Of a stretch of DNA of 64,000 nucleotides, positions 3,745 through 64,000 are shown in pieces; positions within the stretch are counted from its first letter, which is position 1, and each line of letters opens with the position of its first letter. The position numbers and the translations under genes are program-made. Origin of the DNA: an uncultured Marinilabiliaceae bacterium (GTDB lineage Bacteria > Bacteroidota > Bacteroidia > Bacteroidales > VadinHA17). The stretch spans positions 2,583 to 66,582 of the forward strand of contig CALOBV010000007.1 of assembly GCA_942491535.1 (NCBI GenBank). The letters run 5' to 3'. Below the pieces are notes generated by a model. The model ran no database searches and was not told where the DNA came from. It was given only the letters and a program-made list of their open reading frames with translations.

Positions 3745-4941
3745 ATGAATAAGCATATTACGAACAATGTTTTTTGGGTAGGGAAAAATGACTGGGAACT
3801 AAGACAATTCCATGGATACGAATACTCAACCAACAGAGGATCAACGTACAATTCATATTTAATCAAGGAAGAAAAAAATGTGTTGATAGATACTGTTTAT
3901 AAACCTTTCTCATCTGAATTCATTGCCAATCTTTCTAATGAGATAGAATTAAATAAGATTGATTATATTATAGCAAATCATGCTGAGCCTGATCATAGTG
4001 GTGCATTACCAGAGTTGATGAGTATTATTCCTGATACTCCCATTTACTGCACCTCCAATGGCATAAAATCTTTGAAAGGTCATTACCACAAAGAATGGAA
4101 TTTCAAAACTATAAAAACAGGTGACAAACTTCCTATTGGAAATGGTAAAGAGCTTGTATTTATTCAGGCTCCAATGTTGCACTGGCCTGATAGTATGTTT
4201 TCTTATTTAACTGGCGATAATATTTTATTTAGCAATGACGCATTTGGACAACATTTCTGTTCAGAATTATTATTTAACGATTTGGTTGATCAACATGAAC
4301 TTTATTCAGAAGCAATAAAATACTATGCCAATATATTAACCCCATTTAGTCATTTAGTAACAAAAAAAATAGAGGAAGTTATTAATCTTCAAGTACCTGT
4401 AGATTATATATGCACAAGTCATGGCGTAGTATGGCGTGATAATCCTTTGCAAATAGTTTCAAAATACAAGGAGTGGGCTAACGACTATCAGGAGAACCAG
4501 ATTACCATAATCTATGACACAATGTATAACGGAACACGATCAATCGCTGAGAGTATGGTAAAAGGTATATATTCAGTTGATAAGAATGTGACCATTAAAC
4601 TTTATAATGCTGCAAGCAATGATAAAAATGACATTATCACTGAGGTTTTTAAATCTAAAGCTATACTGATTGGCTCACCAACTTTGAACAATGGCATTAT
4701 GCATTCAATAGCAGGTCTGCTGGAACTTATAAAGGGACTTAAGTTTAAGAATAAAAAAGCAGCTTCTTTCGGATGCTATGGATGGCACGATAAATCAACA
4801 AAAGTAATATCTGATATTTTGACCGAATCAGGTTTTGAAATTATTTCCGAACCAATAAAATCAATCTGGCATCCGGATAAAGATATGTTAAGCAAGAGTC
4901 ATGAATACGGCAAGCAGCTTGTGGCACTCATAAATGATTAA
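3745..4941 (+). CDS. Flavodiiron protein (FprA / A-type flavoprotein), NorV-like NO reductase core without the rubredoxin domain
   Basis: 398 aa with a metallo-beta-lactamase-like domain (NHAEPDHSG) plus a flavodoxin-like domain. Long stretches match what I recall of E. coli NorV: NNVFWVGKNDWELRQFHG, YNSYLIKEEKNVLIDTV, PMLHWPDSM, LFSNDAFGQH, YYANILTPFS, TSHGVVWRDNP. It ends about 80 aa short of a flavorubredoxin. Confidence 0.88.
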   Translation: MNKHITNNVFWVGKNDWELRQFHGYEYSTNRGSTYNSYLIKEEKNVLIDTVYKPFSSEFIANLSNEIELNKIDYIIANHAEPDHSGALPELMSIIPDTPIYCTSNGIKSLKGHYHKEWNFKTIKTGDKLPIGNGKELVFIQAPMLHWPDSMFSYLTGDNILFSNDAFGQHFCSELLFNDLVDQHELYSEAIKYYANILTPFSHLVTKKIEEVINLQVPVDYICTSHGVVWRDNPLQIVSKYKEWANDYQENQITIIYDTMYNGTRSIAESMVKGIYSVDKNVTIKLYNAASNDKNDIITEVFKSKAILIGSPTLNNGIMHSIAGLLELIKGLKFKNKKAASFGCYGWHDKSTKVISDILTESGFEIISEPIKSIWHPDKDMLSKSHEYGKQLVALIND

Positions 4942-5319: not shown

Positions 5320-6400
5320 CAAGTGTATTGCAAGCGTGCAGAGGAAGCGAGTTTGCAAATACTCTTGTAGTGCGAGGACAAAAAAAGGGTAGGGGAAGAA
5401 ATCAAAACGAGAATGGGGGAGAATTGGCAATTGAGCAATAGATGCTTTTGTAAGTTATTATAAGAAAAGGAGATATTGCGAGATTTTGGGTAGGAGAGGG
5501 GCTATTTAATATAGTGCTAATTATAGGCAAAGGACATTCGTCCAGGTACAAGATTCAAGACACCAGACTTAAGGCTTGCAAGATTATAAGATTATGTTGA
5601 AGTATAAATGTTCGCTGCGCTCACGTTAAAAGTTAAAACGATGGAATTCAGATGATTATACTTTAGATCTATAGATTACAAATCTAATAGTCAGGTACTT
5701 ATAAAGTTACGGTTGATATAATTTCTATTTAACATAATGTTAGAAATGCGGCAAACGACGAACGGCTAACGGCTAACGGGAGAGACTAGGTCTTGTATTA
5801 ATCTTGAAGCTTATAACTATAATAATAGCCGCAGGCAAACAGATCTAGAATCTTAAATCGTTAATCTGGCGTCTTAAATCAGAAGCTCTTATTTGTTATA
5901 CAGTCATAGATTTCTCGTCGTTGCACTCGCTCGGAATGACAAACAATTCAACACTTTAACGCTTCAACATTTCAACAATATTCTGATCCATTGTACAGTC
6001 TCTAATCAAATATGCGATTCTAATGAAGTTAAAACCCGTAATCCGGTTTCCGGTCTTCGGTCTCCGTTGTCCGGATCTATTTAGCATAATATCACATTAT
6101 AGCTGCAAATAACCGCATGAGCGAAGGCAAACAAATTGCGAGGGTAAGTTATCCAGGAAACAATATTTGTAAGCGTAGAACAAGCGTACGGTTTATATGA
6201 GCCACAAATTGCTTTATCATAAAATCGGTACCGTTATCGGATCTGGCGTCCGATAACTGATTTTATGCTAAATACTGCGTATGCGCAATTTGTTAGCGGA
6301 TTTGCCTATAATTAATATTATGTTAAATAGGAGATATTCCAAAATACTGCCTTATCACCTATCTGTGGTTTGTTGTCAAAAAACTGTGGAAATCTCTTTA
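5320..6400. repeat. 1.1-kb non-coding, repeat-dense island between convergent genes
   Basis: Only two short low-complexity track ORFs fall here (63 aa; 75 aa running on to 6508). A roughly 30-bp unit CTATTTARYATAnT..AATTATAGGCAAA occurs at 5502-5531(+), 5725-5755(+), 6077-6109(+) and 6301-6330(-). Several micro-tandem arrays are present: AACGGCT x3 at 5761-5781, four GTTGAAAT-type 8-mers in minus orientation at 5945-5976, and a CCGGTYT-like run at 6036-6076. Confidence 0.8.
6218..6267. other. Composite 18-bp hairpin / nested inverted repeat inside the non-coding island
   Basis: CATAAAATC (6218-6226) pairs with GATTTTATG (6259-6267). GTTATCGGA (6233-6241) pairs with TCCGATAAC (6249-6257), with a 7-nt loop TCTGGCG. 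Confidence 0.7.
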
Positions 6401-6401
6401 A

Positions 6402-6431
6402 TAAAAAACGGGACCCTTATCAGGATCCCGT
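6402..6431 (-). terminator. Rho-independent terminator of the TPR gene
   Basis: ACGGGA/TCCCGT stem extended by 3 further pairs, 4-nt loop, followed on the minus strand by a T6 run. It lies 24 nt past the stop at 6455. Confidence 0.7.
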
Positions 6432-6454
6432 ATATATTATTATTGTATGATTTA

Positions 6455-7603
6455 TTATCCTTCCAGCTCTTCTATCCTGGCTTTTACCTCGTCGTACTTT
6501 TCAGTTAACTTAAGACGATAGTAAAGTTCTCTTAAACTGGTAAGTGTTGACATATCGTCCGGACGAAGATCCCTGGCCTTTTCCATAAATGGAAGTGCAT
6601 TTCCAAATATTACCATAGCCTTCTCTATTGCCTTATTGTATTCAGTATTGTCCATAATGTCGTTTGCTGCATCAAACATCGCAGATGCCTTATTATAGTA
6701 GCAAACACCCATATTAAATTGAGTATCAAAAAGATCAGGCTTAATTTCTATTGATTTTCCAAGAGCAGCTATAGCTTCATCATATTTGTCCTGCTTCATA
6801 TACAAAACGCCTTCAGCCCAGTATAATGAGAAATTAGCATCATCCTTCTCTTTGGCCATTGTAATATACTCAAATGCATTATCATCCATCTCGTTAACCA
6901 GGTAAAAATCAATAAGTTGCAGTAATACCTGATCGTCTTCGGGAAATTTCTGGAATGCCTCAATAAGCGTCTTTTCGGCATTTTCAAGGTCACCCATATC
7001 GCTATACGTCATATACTTACGCAAATATGGAGTACCGCCTTCATATTCCATTTCAATACATTTATCATAATACATAATTGCCTTTTCGTAATTCTTGGCG
7101 TTATATGCTGTAAGCCCGGCATTAAAAACTACTGCCGTATCCATCAGGCCCATATATTTATCGCTGGATTGAATTTCGAGAAGGGTTTCAAATGCAATAA
7201 GTGATTTATCGAAATTTTCAGCCTCAAACTCGGTTATTGCCCATTCCAGGAAATCGTTAGATAATGTGGGGTACTGGAGAATGATCAATTTATCAATCTG
7301 TTGTTTATCATCCAGCTCCATGGCCTTTTGATAGCTCTGGTGCGCAATCATCAAGGGGTCAGTATATAAGTTAAGATTCTCATCTTTTGCTTCATAGCTT
7401 GCCTGGGCCAGTCTTCCCTGAACATAATATGTTTTAGGATAACCTACCGTCTTCTCGTGAACCAGTGCTTCGTCAACAGCTTCTTTAGCTTTAGAAAGAT
7501 TATTAGCATCAATCATGTTTAAAGCGGTGTTTACTTTACCCTTCTGGGCAAATCCACCAAGAACAAAGACCGAGATCAATAGTGAAAGAAAAAATCTTTT
7601 CAT
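6455..7603 (-). CDS. Secreted tetratricopeptide-repeat (TPR) protein
   Basis: Signal peptide MKRFFLSLLISVFVLGGFAQ, then repeated 34-residue A/Y/L helical motifs throughout the 382 aa. Confidence 0.75.
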   Translation of the reverse strand: MKRFFLSLLISVFVLGGFAQKGKVNTALNMIDANNLSKAKEAVDEALVHEKTVGYPKTYYVQGRLAQASYEAKDENLNLYTDPLMIAHQSYQKAMELDDKQQIDKLIILQYPTLSNDFLEWAITEFEAENFDKSLIAFETLLEIQSSDKYMGLMDTAVVFNAGLTAYNAKNYEKAIMYYDKCIEMEYEGGTPYLRKYMTYSDMGDLENAEKTLIEAFQKFPEDDQVLLQLIDFYLVNEMDDNAFEYITMAKEKDDANFSLYWAEGVLYMKQDKYDEAIAALGKSIEIKPDLFDTQFNMGVCYYNKASAMFDAANDIMDNTEYNKAIEKAMVIFGNALPFMEKARDLRPDDMSTLTSLRELYYRLKLTEKYDEVKARIEELEG

Positions 7604-7689
7604 AATTCAAGTTTATAAATTGTTTTTAAAAGTTCGTGTCAAATTTAATATATTACAGATTATTCTTCAAATACTTTGCCAAATTACTC

Positions 7690-10188
7690 TTACTGTTCCA
7701 CAGCACCATTTTCAATTTGATCTTCCTCGACTGTATCTTCTTCATTTAGTTTAACTTGCGCCACAGCAGCTATAGAATCATTTTCTCGTAAATGAATAAG
7801 ACGAACACCCTGTGTAGCTCTTCCCATTACTCTAAGTGAAGAGACCGGTAACCTCAATACCGTCCCTACCTCTGTTATAATCATAAGATCAAAATTATCG
7901 GTTACTGCCTTAAGAGCCACCAGTTTACCGGTTTTATCGGTTACATTTATTGTTTTTACTCCCTTGCCACCCCTGTTGGTTATCCTGTAATCATCAGTTT
8001 GCGAGCGCTTACCATATCCTTTTTCAGATACAACAAGTAAATTTTCATCACTGTGCTCAACATCAATTGTTACCATGCCAACTACCCTGTCGTTATCATC
8101 ACGACGGGTAATACCTCTAACTCCTGAAGCCGTTCTGCCCATTGGCCTGACTTTTTCTTCCGGGAATCTTATGGCCCTGCCTGATTCAACAGCTAACATA
8201 ATATGATGTTTACCATTTGTAAGTCTTGCCTCCAGAAGCTCATCTCCGTCTCTGACAGTAATTGCATTTACGCCATTTTGTCTTGGGCGTGAATATGCTT
8301 CCAGAGAGGTTTTCTTAATAATCCCGTTTGTGGTGCATAGGACGATGTAGTTATTATTAATATAGTCTTCATCGTTCAGATTCTTGACATTTATATATGC
8401 CATTACTGCATCATCGGGCTCCAGGTTGATCATATTCTGCATAGCCCTCCCCTTCGATGTACGGGTTCCTTCAGGAATCTGGTAAACCTTAAGCCAGAAA
8501 CATTTCCCCTTTCTTGTAAAGAAGAGCATTGTATTATGCATTGTTGCAATATAGAGATGTGAAATAAAGTCTTCTTCACGCGTTGTACTGCCCTTTGCTC
8601 CGATTCCTCCCCTGTTCTGTACCCTGAAATCTGTCAGAGGGGTTCTTTTTATATAACCCATATGTGAGATAGTAATTACCATCTCTTCGTCGGCATAGAA
8701 ATCTTCGGGATTAAATTCTTCTGCATTGGGAACTATCTCTGTCCTGCGTTCATCAGCATATTTTTCCCTAACCTCAATAAGCTCATCCTTGATAATCTGC
8801 ATCTGCAAATCAACATTCTCAAGAATCTCCTTAAAATGCTCGATCTGCTTCATTATCTCATCAAATTCACTTCGCAGCTTATCCTGCTCGAGTCCGGTTA
8901 ACTGGCGCAGTCTCATCTCAACGATTGCCCTTGACTGAATATCAGAGAGGCTGAACCTCTCTATAAGTCTTTCGCGCGCTTCATCAGGAGTCTTTGATGA
9001 TCTGATAATCTGTATTACCTCATCTATATTATCACTGGCAATAATAAGTCCCTCAAGAATATGAGCTCTTTTTTCAGCCTGATCGAGTTCATAGCGTGTA
9101 CGACGAAGAATTACCTCATGCCTGTGATCAACAAAATACCTTATAAGGTCCTTTATAGCCAGTGTACGAGGACGACCTGCAACAAGTGCAATGTTATTAA
9201 CACTGAATGATGTTTGAAGCTGACTGTACTTAAAAAGGGTATTCAGAACGACATTGGCGGTGGCATCCTTCTTAAGGATAATTACTATCCTCATTCCGTT
9301 CCTGTCAGATTCGTCGTTTATATAAGAAATCCCTTCAATCTTCTTATCATTAATTTGATCTGCTATCTTCCTTATCATTTCGGCCTTATTCACCATGTAA
9401 GGAATTTCCGAAACAATTATCTTTTCCCTGCCACTGTCGGTTGTCTCAATCTCAGTCCTGGCTCTTACAACAACTCTACCCCTGCCGGTCTCAAATGCAT
9501 CGCGTATGCCCTGCTCACCGTAAATAATGCCCCCTGTTGGGAAATCAGGTCCTTTGACGTATTCCATAATTCCGTCCACGTCGATATCATTATCTCCTAT
9601 ATAAGCTATTATAGCATCTACTACCTCACCCAGGTTATGCGGAGGCATATTTGTTGCCATACCAACGGCTATACCTGAGGCTCCGTTTAACAGGAGTGTG
9701 GGTATTCGTGTTGGGAATACTGTAGGTTCCTGAAGAGAATCATCGAAATTAAGCTGGAAATCGACTGTGTCCTTATCCAGATCGGACAGTGTCTCTTCGG
9801 CTATCTTTCTCAGCCTTGCCTCAGTATACCTCATTGCAGCCGGGCTATCACCGTCGACCGAACCAAAGTTTCCCTGTCCATCAACAAGTGGATACCTTAG
9901 CGACCATGACTGTGCCATTCTTACCATCGCTTCATATACCGAAGAATCACCATGAGGGTGATACTTACCCAGAACCTCCCCTACTATCCTGGCAGATTTC
10001 TTATATGAACTGTTTGCTTTTACACCGAGTTCTGACATTCCGTACAGCACACGCCTGTGAACAGGCTTTAATCCATCCCTTACATCAGGAAGTGCGCGTG
10101 ATACAATTACCGACATCGAATAGTCGATATATGCCGACTTCATCTCCTCCTCAATATTGATCTTTATGATCTTCTCATTGTCTGACAT
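7690..10188 (-). CDS. gyrA: DNA gyrase subunit A
   Basis: 832 aa with [48 protein letters not shown] and [10 protein letters not shown] (catalytic Tyr region), a C-terminal beta-pinwheel and an acidic tail. Confidence 0.98.
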
Positions 10189-47910: not shown

Positions 47911-48246
47911 TTATAATTTGAAAATTCCTTATACCTAAACAAAAATAGTTTTTCCCACCATATTTCAACATTAAATTGGATAATTAATTTTCTTATCTCA
48001 GAATATTACATCAGAAATGCAATTCTGATAATCAGCATACTTTACATATAAAATCAGACTAACTACTTATCAATTATTTAAAATAGAATTTATATATAGC
48101 GAAACGTTTCTCAGATCAGAAACTTTTATTTTAACACTAAAACTATTGTGTTTATCATATTCTTAAGCTGTGTTAATGTAAATTAATTGACTTATTTGCT
48201 TATTATTTTTACATTTATCCTTCACTCACGCCTAATATATCTTAAT

Positions 48247-51200
48247 ATGAAAAAGATTTACTTAATGATTTTAATAATCCTGGTGACAGTATTTTCATCA
48301 CCTGGATTATTGGCCCAGGTTCCGGATGGATTTAATTACCAGGCAATAGCCAGGGATGAAACCACGGGCGAACCACTTCAAAACACATTGCTAAACGTCC
48401 GGATTGCAATTTTATCATCTATAAATCCTGACGTTGTTGTCTGGGAAGAAGGACATTCATTATATTCAAATGAATTTGGTCTCTTCACACTTCAGGTTGG
48501 AGATCCTTCTGCATCTTATGTTGACGGATCAGCAGGAAGTTTCGCAGCTATAGACTGGACCAGCGGAAGCTATTACATAAGACCCAGTGTTATGAAATCA
48601 GGAGCTAGCTGGCAGGTAATGACTCCTTCAAAACTGATTGCCGTGCCATTTGCTATGATGGCCAGGGATGTTGAAAACAAACAAGAAATAAGCAAGTCTG
48701 GTGATTTTATACTTCTGACAGAAGGTGGCTCGGTCGACCTGTCGGCTTATGTAGACCCGGATCAGACCATAGAACTTGATGGAACTACCTTATCGATAAG
48801 TGGCAGTGGTAGCTCTGTAGATCTTTCAGCCTTTTTAAATCCCGATCAGACTCTGGGTTTAACTGGTAATAATCTCACAATAAGTGGCAGTGGCAGCTCT
48901 GTAGATCTTTCAGGATTTATTGATCCGAAGCAGAATATATCAAAATCCGGAAATACCGTTACCCTGGATGGTAATGGAGGATCATTCAGCCTCGGGGAGT
49001 ATGTAAACCAGTTTGATGCAGATGCCGATACTTTAACAAAATCAGATGGCAGCCTGGTTTTAGGACCCGACAATGCGCAGGGAAGTATACTGAAGGTGGT
49101 TGGAAGTGAAGTAGATCCTGTTGCTCCCCTGTTTGAGGTAAAAAACCAGGCAGGTCAGCAGGTATTTGCTGTTTACGATAACGGTGTCCAGATTCATGTT
49201 GATGATATATCTACTGAAAAAGGTTCACGGGGTGGCTTTGCAGTTGCCGGTTTTGACAGGGATAAAGCACCCGGAAATTCCCAGGATTTTCTATTAATAA
49301 CCCCTGACAGTGTCAGGATGTTTATACCAGAAACTACTGCCGCTGTAAAAGCACCTGGTAGTCGTGGCGGCTTTGCTGTAGGAGGATTCGATGCCGATAA
49401 AAAGGCTCCTACGTCTCTGTATTTTAATGTATCCGGAAGGAATGAGGTGGATATATATTCTGATGTAGCACAGATGCTATGGTATCCTCAGAAGGAAGCC
49501 TTCCAGGCTGGCAGGATTAATATACCACATTCTGATAGTGTAGGATTGAACTCAACAGCCTTTGGTTACCATCCAATGGCAAAAGGAGCATTTTCACAGG
49601 CATTTGGAAATCAGGCTAAAGCTACAGGAGATAACTCTACAGCGATTGGAAATAAGTCGGTTGCAAGGGGATACGACTCATATGCATTTGGATCGAGCGC
49701 CCAGGCACTTGGAGAAAAAAGTTTTGCCCTTGGATCAATTGGTGTAGACTCCCTTGGTAATCCGATGGGTCAGCCCACTACGGCATCGGGCGATTATTCG
49801 ATGGCTATGGGTATGAGTTCGGTTGCCTCTGAAAGGGGTTCTCTTGCTCTCGGGGTAGACAGTTATTCTTCAGGCTGGTATTCAACTGCATTGGGCTATA
49901 GATCAATAGCCTCAGGCTCATATTCAAATGCATTTGGTCTTAGAGCAAACTCTACCGGATCCTATTCAATGGCACTCGGTATGTATTCCTATGCTAAAGG
50001 TTTATATTCGCTTGCTCTGGGATCCAGGGCAACTGCTGAGGGTCAATATTCAATTGCTGTCGGATACTATTCCCGGGTATTAGGGGATTATGCAGTTGGA
50101 TTGGGATACAATGCACAAGCTGATGCAAATTATTCCTACGCGATGGGCAGGGATGCTCTCTCGGAAGGGCTCTATTCCTTTGCGCTTGGCAACCAGGCCA
50201 ATTCTGTAGGTCAGGCAGCATATGCCCTGGGAAACAGGGCAAGTGCAGATGCAGACTATTCCTACGCCCTTGGTAATTCATCTACCGCAGGGGCTATTTA
50301 TGCCTATGCTCTGGGATATAATGCAACTGCAGGAGGTAGTTCATCCTATGCACTGGGTAATGGTGCCCAGGCTACACAGTCATACTCTTATGCACTGGGC
50401 TACGGTTCAAGTGCCACAAATTCCTATGCTATTGCATTGGGTACTAACTCAACTGCAAGCGGTCAGTACGGAACGGCAATAGGCAGGGCGGCTGCAGCTT
50501 CAAATACAGTATCTACTGCTATCGGATTTTCTGCACTGGCAAGCGGATATGGAGGAACAGCTATTGGTTTGTACTCAAAGGCAATAGGAGATTATTCAAA
50601 TGCCCTCGGCTGGTACGCAGAGGCCCAGAAGCCCTATTCTGTTGCAATAGGTCTGGCAGCCGTTGCTAACGGGGATTATGCTTTTGCAATTGGAAGAGGT
50701 GCTCTGTCTACAGCTAATAATGCTACTTCGCTTGGTTATAATGCAAGGGCGCAGGCTGAGAATGCTTATGCCTTCGGAACTAATGCTTTATCGTCAGGAG
50801 TCGCTTCTGTAACTCTTGGTTATCAGAATACAGCTTCTGTTGCTAATGCTATTGCAATTGGTAATTTAAATACTTCCAACGGACAGAATGCTGTCTCCTT
50901 TGGTAGCAGCAATACATCATCGGGAAATTATTCTATAGCAATAGGATCAAGCTCGACTGCTACCGCTGATTATTCAAATGCACTTGGTTATACGGCAAAC
51001 GCCAGCGGAGCGAGATCAACCGCTATTGGATATGAAACATCTGCCCAGGGATATAAGTCTGTATCAATGGGAGCAAACTACTATAAAAACTTATTAATAT
51101 ATAACCCACCATTCTCATCGTTGACCAAAAGCAGTTATCCGTCTACAGTAAAGGCACCAGATGGCGGAGGAGAAGTAATGCCCGGTGAGGGAGGCGAAGA

Positions 51201-52356
51201 ACCTGCCGGTACGAAGCAATTTATTATTCTACCGCTGATTATTGACCGTGATAATGATGCACTAGATAGTTATTCTGTTGCAATCGGAGGTGGAAACCTT
51301 TCAGACCAGGGTGGTTTTACCTTTGGTGTGTATAATGATGCAACAGAAGAATATGCCACAGCAATAGGTTTTGCGAATAAAGCAACTGGTTTATATTCTA
51401 CAGCCATCGGGTTTGCAAATGCTGCTGAAGGTGTTAACTCCACGGCGCTGGGCAAATATACTACTGCCGAATCGTATAATTCAATAGCACTAGGAACATA
51501 TAATTATTTAAGTCCAAGTTATACAACCGACGAATGGGTAGAAACAGATCCTCTATTACAGGTTGGGAACGGCACATCCTCTAGTCCAAACGACGCATTT
51601 GTAATATACAAAAATGGCAAAGCATACCATGAAGCTCGCGATGCACAGGACGGAGTTTATGTATTTAATGAGGCAACAACCAGAACTTCTTCTACATACG
51701 GACTGAGATCGTATTTATATAATAGAACCAGTGCTACCACTTATGGTGTCTATTCATATGCTTATGGATATTCAACTTCAACAGGTAGTATTTATAGTGG
51801 ATACTTTACCAGTTATAACGCTGGAACAGGTGAAAACAGAGGTTTATATGCAACGCTCAGAACCGGAGCGAAAAGCGACCTGGCGGAATATATTTACGAT
51901 AATAACAGAGAAACAGAGGCTGCTGATGTTGTGGTTGCTGATGAAAACGGTAAAGAGAATATTGTTAAGTCGACAAAACCCTATCAGAGTTCGGTTGTAG
52001 GTATTGTTTCAACTGACCCACATCTACTGATGGGTACGGAACTGGTCCTTGATGAAGAATCAGGAGAAGATATCGAAGGGGTTTCTGCTGCCAAACTTGC
52101 TCTTGCCGGACGTGTGCCATGTAAGGTAACTGATGAGAACGGATCGATTAAACCTGGTGATATGCTAACATCTTCTTCTACTCCAGGGCATGCAATGAAG
52201 TGGACTTTGATTGACGTGACAAAGGCAAAAGACTTCGAAGAGCTAAAAACAATGATGGCCGAGAATGAGAAAAGGAGAAATGCTGTTATTGGAAAGGCAC
52301 TTGAGAGTCATATTTCCGGAACAGGTAAAATAATTGTACTGGTAAGCTTACAGTAA
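48247..52356 (+). CDS. Giant secreted YadA-head-repeat protein with a phage-appendage-like C-terminal domain
   Basis: Signal peptide from M21 (MKKIYLMILIILVTVFSSPGLLAQ). aa 455-962 and 1028-1103 hold dozens of roughly 14-residue YSxAxGxxAxAxGx repeats. Next comes QVGNGTSSSPNDAFVIYKNGKAY. The C-terminus reads DLAEYIY..VVGIVSTDP..LALAGRVPCKVTDENGSIKPGDMLTSSSTPGHAMK. Confidence 0.8.
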   Translation: MKKIYLMILIILVTVFSSPGLLAQVPDGFNYQAIARDETTGEPLQNTLLNVRIAILSSINPDVVVWEEGHSLYSNEFGLFTLQVGDPSASYVDGSAGSFAAIDWTSGSYYIRPSVMKSGASWQVMTPSKLIAVPFAMMARDVENKQEISKSGDFILLTEGGSVDLSAYVDPDQTIELDGTTLSISGSGSSVDLSAFLNPDQTLGLTGNNLTISGSGSSVDLSGFIDPKQNISKSGNTVTLDGNGGSFSLGEYVNQFDADADTLTKSDGSLVLGPDNAQGSILKVVGSEVDPVAPLFEVKNQAGQQVFAVYDNGVQIHVDDISTEKGSRGGFAVAGFDRDKAPGNSQDFLLITPDSVRMFIPETTAAVKAPGSRGGFAVGGFDADKKAPTSLYFNVSGRNEVDIYSDVAQMLWYPQKEAFQAGRINIPHSDSVGLNSTAFGYHPMAKGAFSQAFGNQAKATGDNSTAIGNKSVARGYDSYAFGSSAQALGEKSFALGSIGVDSLGNPMGQPTTASGDYSMAMGMSSVASERGSLALGVDSYSSGWYSTALGYRSIASGSYSNAFGLRANSTGSYSMALGMYSYAKGLYSLALGSRATAEGQYSIAVGYYSRVLGDYAVGLGYNAQADANYSYAMGRDALSEGLYSFALGNQANSVGQAAYALGNRASADADYSYALGNSSTAGAIYAYALGYNATAGGSSSYALGNGAQATQSYSYALGYGSSATNSYAIALGTNSTASGQYGTAIGRAAAASNTVSTAIGFSALASGYGGTAIGLYSKAIGDYSNALGWYAEAQKPYSVAIGLAAVANGDYAFAIGRGALSTANNATSLGYNARAQAENAYAFGTNALSSGVASVTLGYQNTASVANAIAIGNLNTSNGQNAVSFGSSNTSSGNYSIAIGSSSTATADYSNALGYTANASGARSTAIGYETSAQGYKSVSMGANYYKNLLIYNPPFSSLTKSSYPSTVKAPDGGGEVMPGEGGEEPAGTKQFIILPLIIDRDNDALDSYSVAIGGGNLSDQGGFTFGVYNDATEEYATAIGFANKATGLYSTAIGFANAAEGVNSTALGKYTTAESYNSIALGTYNYLSPSYTTDEWVETDPLLQVGNGTSSSPNDAFVIYKNGKAYHEARDAQDGVYVFNEATTRTSSTYGLRSYLYNRTSATTYGVYSYAYGYSTSTGSIYSGYFTSYNAGTGENRGLYATLRTGAKSDLAEYIYDNNRETEAADVVVADENGKENIVKSTKPYQSSVVGIVSTDPHLLMGTELVLDEESGEDIEGVSAAKLALAGRVPCKVTDENGSIKPGDMLTSSSTPGHAMKWTLIDVTKAKDFEELKTMMAENEKRRNAVIGKALESHISGTGKIIVLVSLQ

Positions 52357-56797: not shown

Positions 56798-57994
56798 TTA
56801 TCTGATAGATTCGAGTGCCTTACTTATAATATCTATCAGGTAATCTGTCTCCTCAAAGCCTACAGATAATCTTATCATACCTGGCTCAGGATACTTATAT
56901 CCCCATACCGGTTCAACGGGCATAATAATTGTATGAGAATCACCCAGTGTAGGAATAAGCAATATCTTATCGCTTAAAATTTCAATAAGTCTATCCCTGT
57001 TTTCTCTCTTTTTATTGCTGTTTTTGCCGACAATATCAAAAGTTATTATTGCTCCATAACCTCGTTCTGAGAATAGCTTTTCTGCAATCTCTCCTGTCGG
57101 GTGAGATTTAATATTCGGGAACCAGACTCTTTCTACCATATCGGATTCCTCAAGTAAAGAAGCAATCTTAATGCTGTTATAAAATTGCTGTTTGACCCTC
57201 AGGGTGAAAGACTCCATCTGAGTGGTAAGCCTGTATGCATCGTCGGCCGACAGCATATGACCAATAAACTTCCTGTAGTTTGTTGCTTCTTTTCTTAACT
57301 CTTCATCATTGCCACATACTACCCCGGCAGTAATATTACCATGACCGCCAAGGTATTTGGTCGCACTGTGGATCACCAGATCGGCCCCCATCTTTAGTGG
57401 ATTTATTAGATAGGGTGTTGCAAAAGTATTGTCTATAATAACTTTAGCCCCATAGTTATGCGATAGATTAATTATCTTCTCTATATCAGCTACAATCAGA
57501 AGGGGGTTGGAAATAAGCTCACAGAATACCAGGTCAGGCCTCTTCTCCTTGAGCATCTCTTCGAAGCTAATCAGATCATACCTTTCTTCAGAGGGTGCAA
57601 AGCTGATAATATCCAGGCCTCTTCTATTAATCAAAACAGAATCAATATAAGAATTGGTTCCACCATATATTTCTGTAAAGAATAGCCATGAGCCTGTTTC
57701 CTTTCCTGTTTGAAATATTGATAATGCAACATCAATAGCCGACATCCCCGATTGCGTAAGCAATGCCCAGGCACATCCTTCAAGCTGAACTATCTTCTTT
57801 TCGGCAGCTATTACAGTAGGATTTCTATAGCGGCTATATATAAACAGATCCGGCTCAACCGGGACATCCTTCTCATCTTCAAATGCCTGCCCCATTGTTG
57901 AGGAATCATATAATTTAAAACCTGCATCCCGATAAACCGGGACTCTTGAACTAATTGGTCTTTGCTTTTTCATATTCGTCAATGTTTTTATCAA
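56798..57994 (-). CDS. Cys/Met-metabolism PLP-dependent enzyme (cystathionine gamma-synthase/lyase family)
   Basis: YSRYRNPT, DNTFATP and HSATKYLGGHG (PLP lysine) in 398 aa. Confidence 0.85.
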   Translation of the reverse strand: MIKTLTNMKKQRPISSRVPVYRDAGFKLYDSSTMGQAFEDEKDVPVEPDLFIYSRYRNPTVIAAEKKIVQLEGCAWALLTQSGMSAIDVALSIFQTGKETGSWLFFTEIYGGTNSYIDSVLINRRGLDIISFAPSEERYDLISFEEMLKEKRPDLVFCELISNPLLIVADIEKIINLSHNYGAKVIIDNTFATPYLINPLKMGADLVIHSATKYLGGHGNITAGVVCGNDEELRKEATNYRKFIGHMLSADDAYRLTTQMESFTLRVKQQFYNSIKIASLLEESDMVERVWFPNIKSHPTGEIAEKLFSERGYGAIITFDIVGKNSNKKRENRDRLIEILSDKILLIPTLGDSHTIIMPVEPVWGYKYPEPGMIRLSVGFEETDYLIDIISKALESIR

Positions 57995-59270
57995 AGAATG
58001 TCTTAAATAAACTTACCGGGTAAAAATGTAAATAATAAAATATCCTTCCTGCCAACTCGGATATCAGTAATAAAATTATCGACACTAAAGTTATATCAAC
58101 AAGTCCGAGTATCGAGCTACTTAAGTATATAAGCACAAGAGTCTGGATAATGGTAAAAATAACAAAACCCTTTTGCCGTCTATTCTTATAAATATAATAG
58201 ATAGCAGCTACTATTTTAATTATTCCAACAAAAATAAAAGGCAAGGGAGTATTCAGAAAATATGATGCCATTAGCAATCCTGACAGAAAGCTTTGCCCGG
58301 GATGTATCTTAAATGAAAATCGACTATCCGAAGATGTGTAAATAGAATCCACAGATACCAGTAGTAAGAATCCTGCAACAAAGGATATTATCCATAATTC
58401 CCTTATATAAAATATATAGGCAGGCACTGAACTAAGAGAAAAAAGCAATAGAGCTGCTATCTCATTACTCAGGGGTGATCTAAATATCCCCGATATCGAC
58501 CTCCATGCCTTTAAGGGCTTACCCAGGTGGAGCAATGGAATAAGAAGGGTTATTCCCATTGCCAGTGAATATACCAGGGGGCTTATTTTTACTATTCCAA
58601 ACCAGTTAGAAATATTAGTAGCGAAGAGAAGCGAAGATAAGTATGTGAATATCATAAGGCTCCATTCGCTTTTCAAAGTAACTTTTCTATCATGAGAAAC
58701 AAATGCCTTTCGAGGATGATGATCATCATCAAAAGGAACAATATCAGGCCTGCCAGTTCCCATAGTATGACACTCAATAACTGACAGCCTTGGCAGTGTA
58801 CCTGAATCTGTAAAGAGATTTTGCTTTCTTCCTGAATCAATATCTGAGAAGCTAAGTGCTCCTGTAGGGCACGCTGTTACACATGCAGGGTCTATTCCTT
58901 CATTTAACCTGTTATAACATAAGTTACACTTCTCAACCTCTTTCTTTTTTGGATTATACCTGGGAGCATCGTAGGGGCAATTCCAGTAGCAGTACTGACA
59001 TCCAATGCATCTCTCGGGCATAATCTGCACCGTGCCATTTGTCTCATCCCTGTAGTAGGCATTAGCAGGACATCCCGTCATGCAAGGAGCATCCTCGCAA
59101 TGATTACATGCCATTGAAATATTATGTACCGGCAGGCCCGGATAAGTATCAGCATTATCTCCCACTACCATCCTCCACGGCATATCCTGTCCGTTCTCAA
59201 GCGAGCAGGCAATAATGCAGGCATGACATGCAACGCATCGGTCGATATTGAAATTAAAGCCCCTTGCCAT
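57951..59270 (-). CDS. Fused 4Fe-4S ferredoxin (DmsB-like) + DmsC-like membrane anchor subunit
   Basis: N-terminal 180 aa with four Cys clusters (CVACHACIIAC, CNHCEDAPC, CIGCQYCYWNCP, CNLC..CVTACP). Then about 8 TM helices with RSPLSNEI, resembling the DmsC SWLSREI motif. Confidence 0.85.
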   Translation of the reverse strand: MARGFNFNIDRCVACHACIIACSLENGQDMPWRMVVGDNADTYPGLPVHNISMACNHCEDAPCMTGCPANAYYRDETNGTVQIMPERCIGCQYCYWNCPYDAPRYNPKKKEVEKCNLCYNRLNEGIDPACVTACPTGALSFSDIDSGRKQNLFTDSGTLPRLSVIECHTMGTGRPDIVPFDDDHHPRKAFVSHDRKVTLKSEWSLMIFTYLSSLLFATNISNWFGIVKISPLVYSLAMGITLLIPLLHLGKPLKAWRSISGIFRSPLSNEIAALLLFSLSSVPAYIFYIRELWIISFVAGFLLLVSVDSIYTSSDSRFSFKIHPGQSFLSGLLMASYFLNTPLPFIFVGIIKIVAAIYYIYKNRRQKGFVIFTIIQTLVLIYLSSSILGLVDITLVSIILLLISELAGRIFYYLHFYPVSLFKTFFDKNIDEYEKAKTN

Positions 59271-61299
59271 TATTTATTTTTTCAATTCTTACAAGATTGT
59301 CATGAAATGCTGTTCCATGTCCCATATCTGTTTCTCGTCCTTCCGACAGGAAGTTTCCACCACCACTTTCGCTTATCCACCATCCATTAGGCATTGCAAC
59401 ACAGCCAGGCATTATACGGCTTGTAATATCTGTTTTTACAATTATCTCGCCCCTCCTATTATAAACTCTTACAAAGTCATTATTTATTAATCCCAATTTA
59501 TCTGCATCATCAGTGTTTATTTGCAGCAGTGGCTCCGGATCAATTTCCTTAATTACCTTAAGGTTTCCGAACTGGCTATGAATGCGGTTTTTAGTATTAG
59601 GCGAAAGAAATATATAGGTATTATCCCCTCCTTCTTCATCTTCAAAAGCCTTTTTATAGCCGGGCAGAATATTGCATTTCCAGAGAGATTGAGCATCCTC
59701 TGAGAGTATTTCTATCTTTTTTGATTTCGTTTTAAATATAAGATCATGGTAAGCTACCTCTTCGGTATCATCTACAATCCTTTTACTTTCTTTGAAATCG
59801 TCAAGACTAAACTCTGTAAATCCCCTTATCCTGTTTTCAAGCCATCTGTCCATATTATCACTACCTGGTTCAGGTATCTCATCCTCAGTAAAGCTGAGTT
59901 TAAGTCTTTTTGCCAGTTCGTAAAAAATCTCCGACTCCGGCTTTATAGTCGCTAAGGGATTAATTATCTTAGGTTTAAAGCAGATATATGGCGACCAGTA
60001 TGAGCTGATAATATCCTGTTGCTCGAACATGTTTTTAGCAGGAAGGATAAGGTCTGCAAGGGTAGCGGTATCAGACATAAACTGATCGACTACAACTTTG
60101 AATTCTATTCCGGAGATAGCTTCAATAACAGTATTTGTGTCGGGTGCCTGCGTAACAGGATTGCCTCTTTCAATCCATGCAAATTCTATTTCAGGATTTT
60201 TTATTGACAATAAATCCTTACCCAGCCTGGCCATTGAAACTTCCCGCCTGAAAAGAGGGTTTGTATTTATTTCAGGATAATATGATTGGGGTTCTTTTAC
60301 TTTATCAAACACATATCCCTGGAGGTTGGCATAATTAAAACCTGAGCCTCTGTTCCCAATATTTCCTGTAAGGGCACATAGAGTAAGCAGTGATCTTATT
60401 GTCTGACCTCCATTAGTATATCTTTGCATACCGAAGCCGGCAATTATCGTCATAGGCTTAATTTTGCCAATCATTTCGGAAAGAGATAGTATTATTTCTT
60501 CAGGTACACCACTAATTTTTTCAGCATCGGCAGGTGTAATTGTAAGTGAATCTGAGAATTCCCTGAAGCCATGAACATGATTTTGAATAAAATCACTGTT
60601 TATATAATTCTTTTCGATAATAGTTTTTGCAATTGCAAGAGCAATAACTGCATCAGTTCCCGGAACCGGGCGAATAAGCAGATCGGCTTTATCTGCCGTA
60701 GCTGTACGCCTGGGGTCGATAACAACTACCTTCGCCCCTTTCTTCGATGCCCTATCAATAAACACAGTCTCCTGGATATTTGTTTCCGCAGGGTTCTTAC
60801 CCCAAATTATTATAAGCGAAGCATCCTCAAGGAGCCAGGGTGCATTATGTTTTATTTCCCCGAATGACAATCTGCTTGCCTCAAGTCCGGCAGGCCAGCA
60901 AAAGTTACCGTAGCAGGTAGTTGCCCCACCGAAGGAACTAAAGAAATTATAACCTATCTCATTAGTAAGGCCTGCCATACCACTTCCGGTATAGTACAGA
61001 ACAGATTTCTGATTATTTTTATCACGGATTGTTTTTAACTTATCTGCTATTACATCCAGGGCATCATTATAAGCAATTGGCTCGAACTGACCGTCTGGAA
61101 GTCGGATAAGTGGTTCCGTTATTCTGTTTTCTGAATGTGCCCTCTCGATATAAGCCAGGCCTTTGAGGCATGGACCTTCTGAAACTGCCCTGTTTGATTC
61201 GTCGGGTAGAATACGAACAATTTTATTGTTTTCAGTAAAAACTCTGAAGCTACATGTACTGTAACAGTTTCGCGGGCAGACTGTGGTATATTCTTTCAT
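59254..61299 (-). CDS. Molybdopterin (DMSO-reductase family) oxidoreductase catalytic subunit, no Tat signal
   Basis: It starts directly with the FS0 motif (MKEYTTVCPRNCYSTCSF...GPCLKG) and has MopB and C-terminal molydop-binding regions. An in-frame TAG 15 nt upstream of the ATG excludes an N-terminal extension. Confidence 0.88.
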   Translation of the reverse strand: MKEYTTVCPRNCYSTCSFRVFTENNKIVRILPDESNRAVSEGPCLKGLAYIERAHSENRITEPLIRLPDGQFEPIAYNDALDVIADKLKTIRDKNNQKSVLYYTGSGMAGLTNEIGYNFFSSFGGATTCYGNFCWPAGLEASRLSFGEIKHNAPWLLEDASLIIIWGKNPAETNIQETVFIDRASKKGAKVVVIDPRRTATADKADLLIRPVPGTDAVIALAIAKTIIEKNYINSDFIQNHVHGFREFSDSLTITPADAEKISGVPEEIILSLSEMIGKIKPMTIIAGFGMQRYTNGGQTIRSLLTLCALTGNIGNRGSGFNYANLQGYVFDKVKEPQSYYPEINTNPLFRREVSMARLGKDLLSIKNPEIEFAWIERGNPVTQAPDTNTVIEAISGIEFKVVVDQFMSDTATLADLILPAKNMFEQQDIISSYWSPYICFKPKIINPLATIKPESEIFYELAKRLKLSFTEDEIPEPGSDNMDRWLENRIRGFTEFSLDDFKESKRIVDDTEEVAYHDLIFKTKSKKIEILSEDAQSLWKCNILPGYKKAFEDEEGGDNTYIFLSPNTKNRIHSQFGNLKVIKEIDPEPLLQINTDDADKLGLINNDFVRVYNRRGEIIVKTDITSRIMPGCVAMPNGWWISESGGGNFLSEGRETDMGHGTAFHDNLVRIEKINNGKGL

Positions 61300-61335
61300 A
61301 ATCAGAATCTGCTACAAATCTAATCAAAAAGAAAA

Positions 61336-61357
61336 GTCCCGGCACCTCTGCCGGGAC
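61336..61357 (-). terminator. Hairpin terminator of the lipoprotein gene, immediately upstream of the Mo-enzyme operon
   Basis: GTCCCGGCA-cctc-TGCCGGGAC: a 9-bp stem followed on the minus strand by TTTTCTTTTT. Confidence 0.7.
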
Positions 61358-61478
61358 AAAAACCAACCAACCTAACCAAAAAACCTAATTTTTGGATAAC
61401 TAATATGGATAGAATATCTATTAGTCAATTATATAACCAACAGGAATAAAAAAGGTTCAATAAAAAGATATAAATATA

Positions 61479-61883
61479 TTAGAGGTCTGTTATGGGACCG
61501 TCTAATGGGTAGACTATATTAACAACAAGAATACCTGAACCAATTGATGTAGGATATACTTCGTAGGTAACTTTATCAGGTCCTATATACGTTGCATAGG
61601 TATTATCGGGCTCTCCATTTGTATAAACCATACCATCGATGGTCAGACTTACTTCAATTTCCGGATAAGATATTTCGAACCTGTGATAATCAGATAAAGT
61701 AGCGGCATCGATATTACCAAAATTAAATTCTCCTTTCCCGGTATCAACAATTACATTTTCGAAAACCACATCCCCGGTAACATTCTTTATTCTTACATCA
61801 GTTGGACCTTCCGGGGTGATCTTTTCTTTTGAACATCCTGCTATGGCAAGGACGAGAGCAATAAGGATAGTAAGCTTCTTCAT
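61479..61883 (-). CDS. Small lipoprotein, unknown function
   Basis: Lipobox LAIAGCS, 134 aa, beta-rich. Confidence 0.55.
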   Translation of the reverse strand: MKKLTILIALVLAIAGCSKEKITPEGPTDVRIKNVTGDVVFENVIVDTGKGEFNFGNIDAATLSDYHRFEISYPEIEVSLTIDGMVYTNGEPDNTYATYIGPDKVTYEVYPTSIGSGILVVNIVYPLDGPITDL

Positions 61884-61945: not shown

Positions 61946-62725
61946 TTATACTTTTGTAAGTGCTTCGCCGGGAATCCATCCCACATTTCCATCAGATAAC
62001 CTTACCTCATACCATCCTCCCAGTTCGTCCTCAATTCTTACTTTTGTACCTTCATGGATAAGAAACAGGTCTTTACCGCTCTCGTCGGGCGAACTTTTGC
62101 CAGTTACAGCCGGTGCAAATATTATCGCGTTTTGCTTTTTAATTGTCAGGATAGTATTCTGATATGAAAGAGAAATTGCAAAAACAGAAATAACAAGCAT
62201 AAGTAAGCCCGCCAGGAAACTGATCTTTTTTATTCCAATACGAATGGAGAAGAGGTAAATAAGAATTAGCGACAGGGATGCAACAAAGGCTACAAGACTT
62301 ATTATTGACCATACATTGGAATGAAATATCAGTGATACCATTTTATACCACCTGACCAGGAATAGTTCGGGAAGTGACTCAAAACTATCTGTAATATAGC
62401 TCCTTGCTATTTCTAGGTTATACTTTACATCCTCGTTGAATGGTCTCATTAACAAGGCCTTTTCGTAGTATAAAATAGCCCCGGGCATACTGCCGCTCTT
62501 AAAGTTTGCATTACCCAGATTATAAAACAAATCATAAGAGGTGTAACCGGAATATACAAGTTTATCCCATTCCTCAATTGCTTCCTTATAATTTCCATCT
62601 GTATAAAGACTTATGCCCTTATCAAAAATAGCTTCAGGATCCTGGGGTGAACTCAGTAAAGTGAGCCCTGTACTTACTGATAATATAAGTAATGCTACTA
62701 CCCTGTATATTATTTTAGATCTCAT
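61946..62725 (-). CDS. BatE-like TPR + SH3 aerotolerance protein
   Basis: N-terminal TPR (AIEEWDKLV, YNLGNANFK), TM helices and a C-terminal SH3b (GGWYEVRLSDGNVGWIPGEAL). Confidence 0.75.
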   Translation of the reverse strand: MRSKIIYRVVALLILSVSTGLTLLSSPQDPEAIFDKGISLYTDGNYKEAIEEWDKLVYSGYTSYDLFYNLGNANFKSGSMPGAILYYEKALLMRPFNEDVKYNLEIARSYITDSFESLPELFLVRWYKMVSLIFHSNVWSIISLVAFVASLSLILIYLFSIRIGIKKISFLAGLLMLVISVFAISLSYQNTILTIKKQNAIIFAPAVTGKSSPDESGKDLFLIHEGTKVRIEDELGGWYEVRLSDGNVGWIPGEALTKV

Positions 62726-64000
62726 TTTCTATTGCTTTGATAACTTCCTCCGCCGATCTGTAGATATCTTTCCTATCCTGTACTGACCCTGTAGGTGAAA
62801 ACCTTGAGTACTCGCACGACTCGATAATATTGATGATTTTATTTATCGACATACTATCAATTCCCTTCTTAGCTAAAATTCCGGTGGCTGCCTGTATATT
62901 GAGATGGGAATAAGGTATGCTCAGTTTATCACTGAGATATCCCCACATCGCTTTCAGTAATTCTGAGAAAAACTCTTCATCATTATCTTCTTTAAGGAAT
63001 TTACCTGCGGTTTTAAGTCTCGCGGATGCAACTTTTGCAGCCTTCCTGTTCCTTACCTTTGCCAGGTCTGAATTTCTCTTAAGATGCTCTCTTCTCCATA
63101 TAATAATAATTATAAACAGTAATAGAGCCGACAGGTACATTATTATAAATGAGGATCTTGAGACAAGAACCATATTCTGCTTCTTCAGACTTTTATTATT
63201 AGAGTGTATATACCTGATATCCCTTCCCAGGTAGGTTATGCTTTCTTTATTAACTGATCCGAATACCTGGGTCTCAGCATCTGCATCATTTCCTTTTCTA
63301 ACATAGAAGCTCTTTACTTTGGTTGATAAGACTTTATACCTTCCTGCATCGGGATCATAATAAGAATACTCAATTGGGGGTATCTCGAACAAACCATGAT
63401 GTCTCGGAATCAGAACATATTCAAAGGTCCGGCTGCCTTCAGTGCCAGATGATGTATAATTAAGATTTGATTCAATCTTGGGATCGTATATTTCAATGTC
63501 AGGTGAAAGAATAAACTCAGGTGGCATTGACAGTTGCAGATTACCATTTCCCGAAATTTTTACTTTAAGGGTAAGAGCTTCATTTACAGATATAGTATCC
63601 GCATTAATATCTGCACTTAATGATATTGATCCTACAGTACCCTGGAAAGAACCTGGTTTGCCCGAAGGCAATGGTTTTACTTCGATATCAACAGGCATAG
63701 TAGCTATTACCTTGGGCACCGTGCTGAATGAGGAAAAGAAATCACCGAAGAAAGGATCATTTGACCGGGCACGTTCCTGTAATAAAACAGTAAGTGTTGA
63801 TGGCTCAATCCTGAGAGTACCAGATTTTTGAGGATATATTAAGAAACGTTGCAGTACTCCGGTATTATATATAGTACCATTTACATTCTCTGGTTCAAGA
63901 GTCCTGAGAGGTACAGTTTCCAGATCGGTTTTTAAGAATCCATTAAAATCAGGATAATTAAGCTCCTGGATCCCACTCAGGTTTACCCTTGAGTATATTT
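62715..64000 (-). CDS. BatD-like oxygen-tolerance protein, N-terminus beyond the window end
   Basis: I checked that the frame stays open from 63719 to 64000 (..NYPDFNGFLKTDLETVPLRTLEPENVNGTIYNTGVLQRFLIYPQKSGTLRIEPSTLTV..). It has a TM helix plus a C-terminal helical part and overlaps BatE by 11 nt. Confidence 0.75.
   Translation of the reverse strand, partial: IYSRVNLSGIQELNYPDFNGFLKTDLETVPLRTLEPENVNGTIYNTGVLQRFLIYPQKSGTLRIEPSTLTVLLQERARSNDPFFGDFFSSFSTVPKVIATMPVDIEVKPLPSGKPGSFQGTVGSISLSADINADTISVNEALTLKVKISGNGNLQLSMPPEFILSPDIEIYDPKIESNLNYTSSGTEGSRTFEYVLIPRHHGLFEIPPIEYSYYDPDAGRYKVLSTKVKSFYVRKGNDADAETQVFGSVNKESITYLGRDIRYIHSNNKSLKKQNMVLVSRSSFIIMYLSALLLFIIIIIWRREHLKRNSDLAKVRNRKAAKVASARLKTAGKFLKEDNDEEFFSELLKAMWGYLSDKLSIPYSHLNIQAATGILAKKGIDSMSINKIINIIESCEYSRFSPTGSVQDRKDIYRSAEEVIKAIENEI

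Follow-up and report, generated by a model that had tools for sequence, protein, structure and literature searches.

Among the described systems, SoeABC is the closest in architecture and orientation to the locus presented here, and DmsABC is the closest by subunit sequence. SoeABC, a membrane-bound, cytoplasm-facing sulfite:quinone oxidoreductase of Allochromatium vinosum, Ruegeria pomeroyi and Aquifex aeolicus, is a sulfite dehydrogenase with an inverted DmsC-type membrane subunit, SoeC (PMC8076601, PMC6335251, PMC10100899). According to Calisto and Pereira, SoeC is inverted since SoeABC faces the N-side; the quinone site of the Aquifex protein comprises His65, Ser82, Ser85 and Glu87, and SoeC has been reported in Proteobacteria, Aquificae and a few Clostridia, not in Bacteroidota (PMC8076601). 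We analysed three genes located in a stretch of 64,000 nucleotides (nt), hereafter the window, from an uncultured Marinilabiliaceae bacterium (contig CALOBV010000007.1). They encode a MopB catalytic subunit, an iron-sulfur protein fused to a membrane anchor (FeS-anchor) and a pyridoxal-phosphate (PLP) enzyme; we call the first two the pair and all three the triad. An earlier reading of this DNA, referred to as the original prediction, had described a cytoplasm-facing, quinol-linked DmsABC-like enzyme acting with the PLP enzyme on a sulfur or selenium amino-acid derivative such as an S-oxide. We conclude that the triad represents a known kind of enzyme in an uncharacterised variant, whose partnership with the PLP enzyme is unusual and stable. 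The best explanation as a whole, which we hold tentatively and with slightly more doubt than belief, is an inward-facing molybdenum/tungsten (Mo/W) oxidoreductase with a coupled PLP enzyme and a small sulfur or selenium substrate.

The three open reading frames (ORFs), all on the minus strand, and the 17-nt overlap between the first two are real, as had been proposed: the ORF coordinates agree, and the same overlap occurs in the closest relative (L088), which comes from another assembly. By scanning one genome per species, we found 291 relatives, the best 80 of which were examined. The PLP gene lies directly downstream of the pair in 55 of these 80 loci and not in 18, the 7 other contigs being too short to tell; the conservation of the triad, put up for checking by the original prediction, thus holds in relatives. 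This arrangement goes beyond chance, as it recurs in dozens of species genomes. Across relatives, the MopB/FeS-anchor junction shows a median gap of +1 nt and does not exceed 10 nt in 71 out of 79 cases.

On its upstream edge, the unit is bounded by the intrinsic terminator of a lipoprotein gene (9-bp stem with 7 G-C pairs, then TTTTCTTTTT), which was graded strong. MopB is preceded by a box with the pattern TAnnTTTG, the Bacteroides -7 promoter consensus, and 26 of the 55 PLP-linked relatives have such a box 16-19 nt upstream of the MopB start. No comparable position-specific TAnnTTTG box was detected before the PLP gene in these 55 relatives; in the window, a chance occurrence of the motif lies within the anchor gene, 263 nt before the PLP start. 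The terminator, the conserved distance of the box and the lack of a box before the PLP gene show that the three genes make up a predicted transcription unit of their own, and we show them to be a putative self-contained operon for a membrane-bound Mo/W bis-pyranopterin guanine dinucleotide (Mo/W-bisPGD) oxidoreductase. On the downstream side, 19 nt separate the PLP stop from the end of a convergent nitroreductase gene. The GC content of the operon is that of the rest of the window. At gathering thresholds, Rfam found no riboswitch or other RNA element before the operon, its sole match in the whole window being a tRNA, and an E-value scan of positions 61250-61520 returned chance matches only. 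A sigma-70 promoter scan, with a model ill-suited to Bacteroidota, gave 27 against 20.2 ± 4.8 in shuffled sequence, i.e. not above expectation.

The FeS-anchor protein fuses, as the original prediction had it, a four-cluster DmsB-like ferredoxin to a DmsC-like anchor. All 16 cluster cysteines of the ferredoxin domain (16/16) are invariant in 29 homologues, and the protein scores 135.3 bits against the NCBIfam model DMSO_dmsB, under the cut-off of 214.1. The match of the anchor domain to Pfam DmsC (PF04976) is weak but above threshold (26.1 bits for a cut-off of 22.3). In this domain, WSLxxF aligns to the DmsC N-terminus, and the family profile places H248 on His65 of Escherichia coli DmsC, S265 and S268 on Ser82 and Ser85, and E270 on Glu87. 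The resulting candidate quinol-site pattern, H-x16-S-x2-S-x-E at residues 248-270, contains H248 and E270 in all 29 sequences; in DmsC, His65 and Glu87 are linked to menaquinol binding. The AlphaFold2 (AF2) model of the anchor has eight helices, with a predicted local distance difference test score (pLDDT) >90 over most of the membrane domain. Foldseek matches the anchor to PsrC (TM 0.55), the matches of the FeS-anchor model being weak.

Several features bear on the orientation of the complex. MopB begins 7 residues ahead of its first FS0 cysteine (C8-x3-C12-x3-C16...C44), and 15 out of 15 aligned homologues share this start position, while E. coli DmsA has 55 additional N-terminal residues in the alignment. 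As an in-frame TAG (61312-61314) lies upstream of the MopB ATG, with 12 nt between them, no N-terminal leader is possible; the claim that MopB starts at FS0 with no twin-arginine translocation (Tat) leader was thus borne out. No Tat or Sec signal was detected in MopB or in the FeS-anchor protein. In addition, with the FeS domain inside (N-in), the anchor loops carry 14 lysines and arginines inside vs. 1 outside. Given this charge count and the lack of a signal in either subunit, the catalytic side, the FeS domain and the quinol site should all lie on the cytoplasmic face. The quinol site and the charges therefore agree with the cytoplasm-facing, quinol-linked complex first proposed, but inward orientation alone is not new, as SoeABC and NarGHI, another cytoplasm-facing complex, precede it.

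The third protein is a Cys/Met-metabolism PLP enzyme, as expected (PF01053, 257.5 bits for a cut-off of 27), with its SATK lysine K206 at 57356-57358 in the numbering of the 391-amino-acid (aa) form. The whole catalytic set is present (Y46, R48, Y103, D181, S203, K206 and R368), and K206, D181, Y103 and R368 align to methionine gamma-lyase (MGL) and are invariant in 24 sequences. The fold and the catalytic set are those of the known PF01053 enzymes, i.e. MGL, cystathionine gamma-synthase (CGS) and gamma-lyase (CGL), and O-succinyl- and O-acetyl-homoserine sulfhydrylases, and the best PDB matches are MGL and CGS (E about 1e-46). None of the named PF01053 equivalogs (MetB, MetC, MetZ, MetY, MGL, CGL) reached its NCBIfam cut-off, the best score being that of PRK08574 'CGS family' (232 bits vs. 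477). Unlike MGL, the protein has no 8-residue segment (HPASMTHS in MGL) adjoining the substrate pocket. By these comparisons, it is a divergent PF01053 subfamily with a predicted intact catalytic set.

Although a 44-nt overlap with the anchor gene had been described, a 23-nt overlap is most likely, because a 100 % identical public protein of 391 aa begins at ATG 57973, as do the homologues, which share the N-terminus MKK... of this form. In about 46 of the 55 loci, the PLP gene begins within the end of the anchor gene (the overlap being most commonly 20 nt; 26 loci), and this holds down to 52 % MopB identity, while the gene that follows the PLP gene varies (nitroreductase, UDG or insertions). 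Conservation of the triad by itself is weak evidence of coupling because the whole neighbourhood of the triad clade is syntenic (Bat operon, 134-aa lipoprotein, triad, UDG); the overlaps show a predicted translational coupling of the PLP gene to the anchor gene. An apparent FeS-anchor/PLP fusion (L036) was rejected, a stop codon being present.

The PLP gene might nevertheless be a passenger, an ordinary gene of Met/Cys biosynthesis that came to be fixed behind the pair in a single clade, while the pair would be a general cytoplasmic oxidoreductase linked to quinone and acting on a non-sulfur substrate such as arsenate, selenate, tellurite, nitrate, chlorate or an organic compound. The confinement of the linkage to one monophyletic, wholly syntenic clade, the numerous PLP-less lineages with unrelated neighbours and the chance promoter-like motif in the anchor gene fit this explanation. 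The active-site signature of MopB (CWPAGLEA, YANLQ, SYWxPY) is moreover identical with and without the PLP partner. Since the pair keeps this signature without the PLP gene in many lineages, the PLP enzyme is a lineage-specific add-on: its partnership is conserved, as originally proposed, but it does not define the substrate. We nevertheless consider a mere passenger rather doubtful, because a passenger would fit poorly with overlaps kept to 52 % MopB identity before a variable next gene, with the lack of a conserved promoter box, with a protein so divergent from a standard housekeeping enzyme and with the independent sulfur-related neighbours found in other clades. With the overlaps retained, no box before the PLP gene and a divergent PLP subfamily, the findings do not run against the original prediction of a tightly coupled PLP gene without a promoter of its own.

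MopB carries the Pfam domains PF04879, PF00384 and PF01568 (Fe4S4, molybdopterin and dinucleotide-binding). The cysteine of GNFCWPAG that the original prediction had singled out is Cys134 (in YGNFCWPAGLEA); it aligns to SeCys140 of the formate dehydrogenase FdhH and to Ser205 of DmsA (Ser176 in the old numbering) and is the predicted metal ligand. No NCBIfam model matched MopB at its cut-off. The top scores were those of dmsA_ynfE (289.1 bits for a cut-off of 777.7) and Fdh-alpha (288 vs. 666); the NasC (220 vs. 1100), bisC_fam (208 vs. 1017) and PhsA (174 vs. 694) models scored lower. Generic annotations, among them the JGI name 'anaerobic selenocysteine-containing dehydrogenase', would make MopB a formate dehydrogenase or an assimilatory nitrate reductase. 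The top PDB sequence matches are indeed formate dehydrogenases (E 4e-57 to 7e-51), PDB relatives sharing at most about 25 % identity with MopB, and the Fdh-alpha and NasC scores are sizeable, but both are far under their cut-offs. Furthermore, the alignment shows Trp135 at the position of the catalytic His of formate dehydrogenases and no Arg at the Arg333-equivalent position, which falls within GFNYANLQ. The FS0 spacing is the DmsA-like C-x3-C-x3-C and not the C-x2-C-x3-C of Fdh/Nap. Both readings, which we regard as hardly credible, were rejected on the active-site residues.

The substrate first proposed was an S- or Se-oxide of a sulfur or selenium amino acid (e.g. free methionine sulfoxide), reduced in the cytoplasm with quinol while the PLP enzyme makes or cleaves the compound, in repair or salvage. 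This would fit the Cys/Met metabolism of the PLP partner, the DmsA-like FS0 spacing and the C-terminal half of MopB, whose best scores are to S-/N-oxide reductases of the BisC/TorA/DorA type (bisC_fam, TorA, DorA). DorA also heads the Foldseek list of the MopB model, but DorA, FdhH and Nap score nearly equally, so this list does not discriminate. Likewise, the triad always follows the Bat aerotolerance operon, an oxidative-stress context, but this linkage is limited to one syntenic clade. The Lrp/AsnC regulators, aminotransferase and M20 peptidase near some PLP-less loci hint at amino-acid chemistry. The S-/N-oxide reductases DmsA, DorA, TorA and BisC use a Ser ligand; by analogy, the Cys of MopB where DmsA has Ser argues against an amino-acid S-oxide, as do the unchanged active-site signature in lineages without the PLP partner and the neighbours found elsewhere, which point to inorganic or sulfane sulfur (cysP-cysT-cysA; cysteine-desulfurase-like gene and sulfotransferase). 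We therefore rate this substrate below a small sulfur or selenium compound and consider it decidedly unlikely.

DmsABC and YnfEFGH, the dimethyl sulfoxide (DMSO) and selenate reductases of E. coli, supply the best NCBIfam models for both subunits and share the FS0 spacing, the 16-Cys DmsB pattern and a DmsC-family anchor with H65/E87 equivalents. However, the scores remain far under the cut-offs of TIGR02166 (dmsA_ynfE) and TIGR02951 (DMSO_dmsB), and their Tat leader, missing here, implies the opposite orientation. DmsA has a Ser ligand, MopB is about 130 residues shorter than its DmsABC counterpart, and B and C are fused in the window. SoeABC resembles the triad in its Tat-less, cytoplasm-facing, Cys-ligated MopB subunit (PMC10100899). 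It also has a four-cluster FeS subunit and a haem-less eight-helix anchor, and the quinone-site residues of SoeC match H248, S265, S268 and E270 through the published numbers and the DmsC alignment. However, B and C are separate in SoeABC and form one 439-aa polypeptide here, and no PLP partner has been described for SoeABC. Dahl et al. 2013 are said to have put SoeA at about 109 kDa; compared by size alone, SoeA argues against orthology with the 681-aa MopB. On these traits, the triad departs from both families: from Dms in lacking a Tat leader and a Ser ligand, and from Soe in its fused subunits and smaller MopB.

The polysulfide, thiosulfate and tetrathionate reductases PsrABC, PhsABC and TtrABC likewise have a Cys-ligated MopB subunit, a four-cluster B subunit and a quinol-oxidising anchor, the PsrC fold being the one matched above. 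They are, however, Tat-exported, and they have anchors of the NrfD/PsrC (PF03916) or haem-b PhsC type where the triad has a DmsC-type one. BisC, TorA and DorA have a Ser ligand and no FS0 cluster, whereas MopB has FS0 (PF04879) and Cys, DmsA being the one Ser-ligated protein aligned. The next relatives (30-38 % identity) are soluble cytoplasmic Firmicutes proteins of the YoaE/YyaE type, which also start directly at FS0 and measure about 650-680 aa. They differ in being stand-alone genes with no FeS or anchor partner and in keeping the CW/YANLQ signature only in part; those on megaplasmids are monocistronic with uninformative neighbours. Ravcheev and Thiele 2014 (PMC4257093) assigned YoaE/YyaE-like proteins to an 'unknown' branch.

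We favour a small sulfur (or selenium) compound tied to Cys/Met metabolism as substrate, rather than an amino-acid S-oxide, because of the Cys ligand and of sulfur-related neighbours in three clades; this is the least secure part of our explanation. Among MopB enzymes, Psr, Phs, Ttr, Soe and bacterial Sre have a Cys ligand (PMC10100899). The sulfur theme consists of PF01053, a family that makes or uses H2S, methanethiol, homocysteine or cysteine, in the triad; of a sulfotransferase gene and a convergent gene resembling cysteine desulfurases (348.5 bits, cut-off 352), both next to the pair in L085; and of the sulfate/thiosulfate importer genes cysP, cysT and cysA, directly upstream of the outgroup A-B-C genes in L141, L132 and L126, all above the NCBIfam subfamily/equivalog cut-offs. 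In such a system, electrons would pass between the menaquinone pool and the Mo site via five clusters. The step itself would not be electrogenic, because the quinol and substrate half-reactions would take place on the same side of the membrane. MopB might reduce polysulfide, persulfide, thiosulfate, a selenium oxyanion or another such sulfane or oxyanion species, the PLP enzyme, as a sulfhydrylase, consuming the sulfide or selenide produced. Alternatively, the complex might oxidise sulfite as SoeABC does, with menaquinone as acceptor.

Several points weigh against this explanation. Thiosulfate reduction by menaquinol is thermodynamically unfavourable without an input of proton-motive force, which a haem-less, same-side architecture cannot supply, and SoeA is about 300 residues longer than MopB. 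The affinity of the C-terminal half of MopB for S-/N-oxide reductases, noted above, also counts here, as do the moderate models (pLDDT 72.6 for MopB; 67.5 for the whole FeS-anchor protein, with the FeS half poorly modelled). The cysP/cysT/cysA link stems from three contigs so closely related that they amount to one lineage, and could equally reflect the supply of an oxyanion (molybdate, selenate). Similarly, the TupA-like tungstate transporters found downstream in six outgroup loci are ordinary for Mo/W enzymes and probably serve cofactor supply. Around most PLP-less loci, the neighbours vary and show no connection with sulfur (AI-2E transporter, Band-7, Lrp/AsnC, aminotransferase with M20 peptidase). 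Finally, the 80 loci examined were those most similar to the query, and the tree used is a neighbour-joining distance tree without support values.

A bolder version of the sulfur or selenium explanation would make the triad a previously unrecognised assimilation route for these elements in anaerobic Bacteroidales. The menaquinol-fed, inward-facing Mo enzyme would reduce an imported or intracellular sulfane or oxyanion species and hand the sulfide or selenide directly to the dedicated, coupled PF01053 sulfhydrylase, whose pull would drive the otherwise unfavourable reduction; a respiratory-type membrane module would thus have been re-purposed for biosynthesis. We consider this route unlikely.

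The distribution of the genes suggests how the triad arose. In the neighbour-joining tree, the PLP-linked loci form one clade, the sole exception being the degraded locus L049. The PLP-less loci are paraphyletic and belong to Marinilabiliaceae, Draconibacterium, Salinivirgaceae, Rhodothermaceae, one Gemmatimonadota and one Aminicenantes, Draconibacterium being the only cultured host. The B-C fusion (439-aa type) is present in all the PLP-linked and PLP-less close relatives examined. The nearest outgroup (about 37 % identity) is Tat-less; its B and C subunits are two proteins of about 200 and about 275 aa, respectively, and the latter shares the H-x16-S-x2-S-x-E motif with the fused anchor. The likely order is therefore an inward-facing A+B+C complex, then the B-C fusion, then the recruitment of the PLP gene in one Bacteroidales lineage. 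These comparisons show a putative single recruitment followed by retention in one Bacteroidales clade, the pair of MopB and fused anchor being, from the distribution of its genes, older and wider than the triad. A scan built from the outgroup alignment matched at least 543 metagenome contigs. The fusion also prevails in the 80 metagenome loci, where we found 51 with a fused-length or contig-end-cut match, 11 without an adjacent FeS-anchor match and 18 of the outgroup.

Two longer fusions were also observed, both of which may be due to sequencing errors: MopB and FeS-anchor as one 1134-aa ORF (L052:2875-6279) and, in an outgroup locus, MopB and FeS as one 932-aa ORF followed by a separate anchor (L156:330-3128).

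Table 1. Positions of the predicted features of the triad, in the window unless a locus is given.
Feature	Position	Strand	Size or residues	Basis or remark
MopB catalytic subunit gene	59254..61299	-	681 aa	Pfam, alignments
FeS-anchor fusion gene	57951..59270	-	439 aa	ORF, Pfam
PLP-enzyme gene (PF01053)	56798..57973	-	391 aa	Pfam, identical public protein
PLP ORF, TTG-start version	56798-57994	-	398 aa	
Intrinsic terminator of the upstream lipoprotein gene; upstream edge of the unit	61336..61357	-		stem + TTTTCTTTTT
Putative Bacteroidetes-type -7 promoter box TAGATTTG (TAnnTTTG)	61315..61322	-		15 nt before MopB ATG
MopB stop/FeS-anchor start overlap	59254..59270	-	17 nt	
FeS-anchor stop/PLP ATG overlap	57951..57973	-	23 nt	44 nt with TTG 57994
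FS0 cysteines of MopB	61252-61278; 61168-61170	-	C8/C12/C16; C44	
Predicted metal ligand of MopB	60898-60900	-	Cys134	alignment to FdhH, DmsA
DmsB-like ferredoxin domain	58821..59270	-	residues 1-150	Pfam Fer4_11, 88.8 bits
Four [4Fe-4S] motifs			C12/15/18/22, C55/58/63/67, C88/91/94/98, C115/118/130/134	
DmsC/SoeC-type eight-helix anchor domain	57951..58673	-	residues 200-439	Pfam DmsC, alignment
Candidate quinol-site residues	58527-58529 (H248); 58461-58463 (E270)	-	H248, S265, S268, E270	DmsC profile alignment
Outgroup sulfate/thiosulfate importer and tungstate transporter regions	L141:679-4418; L132:482-1861 and 5521-7876			

The genes around the triad were also inventoried. Genes of the Bat operon lie ahead of it at 61946-63719 (minus strand) and past the end of the window, in the order BatD, then a TPR/SH3 protein, and relatives carry BatA/BatB still farther upstream; this operon precedes the triad in every triad-clade locus examined and is absent beside PLP-less loci. 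Between the two, the 134-aa predicted lipoprotein (61479-61883, minus strand; no Pfam match) is conserved directly upstream of MopB in the triad clade. Only 6-7 nt separate it from MopB in L017, L020, L037, L046 and L050, but a terminator stands between the two in the window; it could be part of either the Bat operon or the triad. When the neighbours of 86 PLP-less loci were clustered, no universal partner emerged, the best being an AI-2E transporter in 5-6 loci, and Lrp/AsnC regulators stand beside the pair in three Marinilabiliales loci. In a metagenome-assembled genome of Rhodothermaceae (L084:2852-9450), same-strand genes for an IclR regulator, a class-I aminotransferase and a PepT-like M20 peptidase surround the pair. 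This aminotransferase has a MocR-type domain without helix-turn-helix and is a second, independent association with a PLP enzyme.

Elsewhere in the window, a quinol-type nitric-oxide reductase gene (797-3050, plus strand) is broken into four ORFs in different frames, either as a pseudogene or through assembly frameshifts. It comprises a NorB cytochrome-c-like domain (797-1309) and pieces 2-100, 87-344 and 351-436 of the COX1 profile (1504-1986, 1910-2791 and 2697-3050), and is adjoined by a flavodiiron protein gene (3745-4941, plus strand; metallo-beta-lactamase-like domain and flavodoxin). A 1389-aa protein encoded at 48187-52356 (plus strand) shows eight YadA-head repeat matches.

In a literature of 8 million papers, our searches found no description of the triad, of a DmsB-DmsC fusion or of a molybdoenzyme/cystathionine operon, in agreement with the original statement that no characterised example is known. 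Complex iron-sulfur molybdoenzymes are usually taken as outward-facing respiratory modules, SoeABC and NarGHI being the usual inward-facing exceptions, and the present analysis adds to these an inward-facing lineage found in about 290 species-level genomes. If the link to sulfur or selenium is true, Cys/Met metabolism would be coupled directly with the menaquinone pool in anaerobic Bacteroidales that abound in peat, sediment and digesters, and thousands of genes labelled only 'molybdopterin-dependent oxidoreductase' would gain a handle for their annotation. If the PLP link is incidental, the pair would still represent an uncharacterised enzyme family with testable residues (Cys134, H248 and E270).

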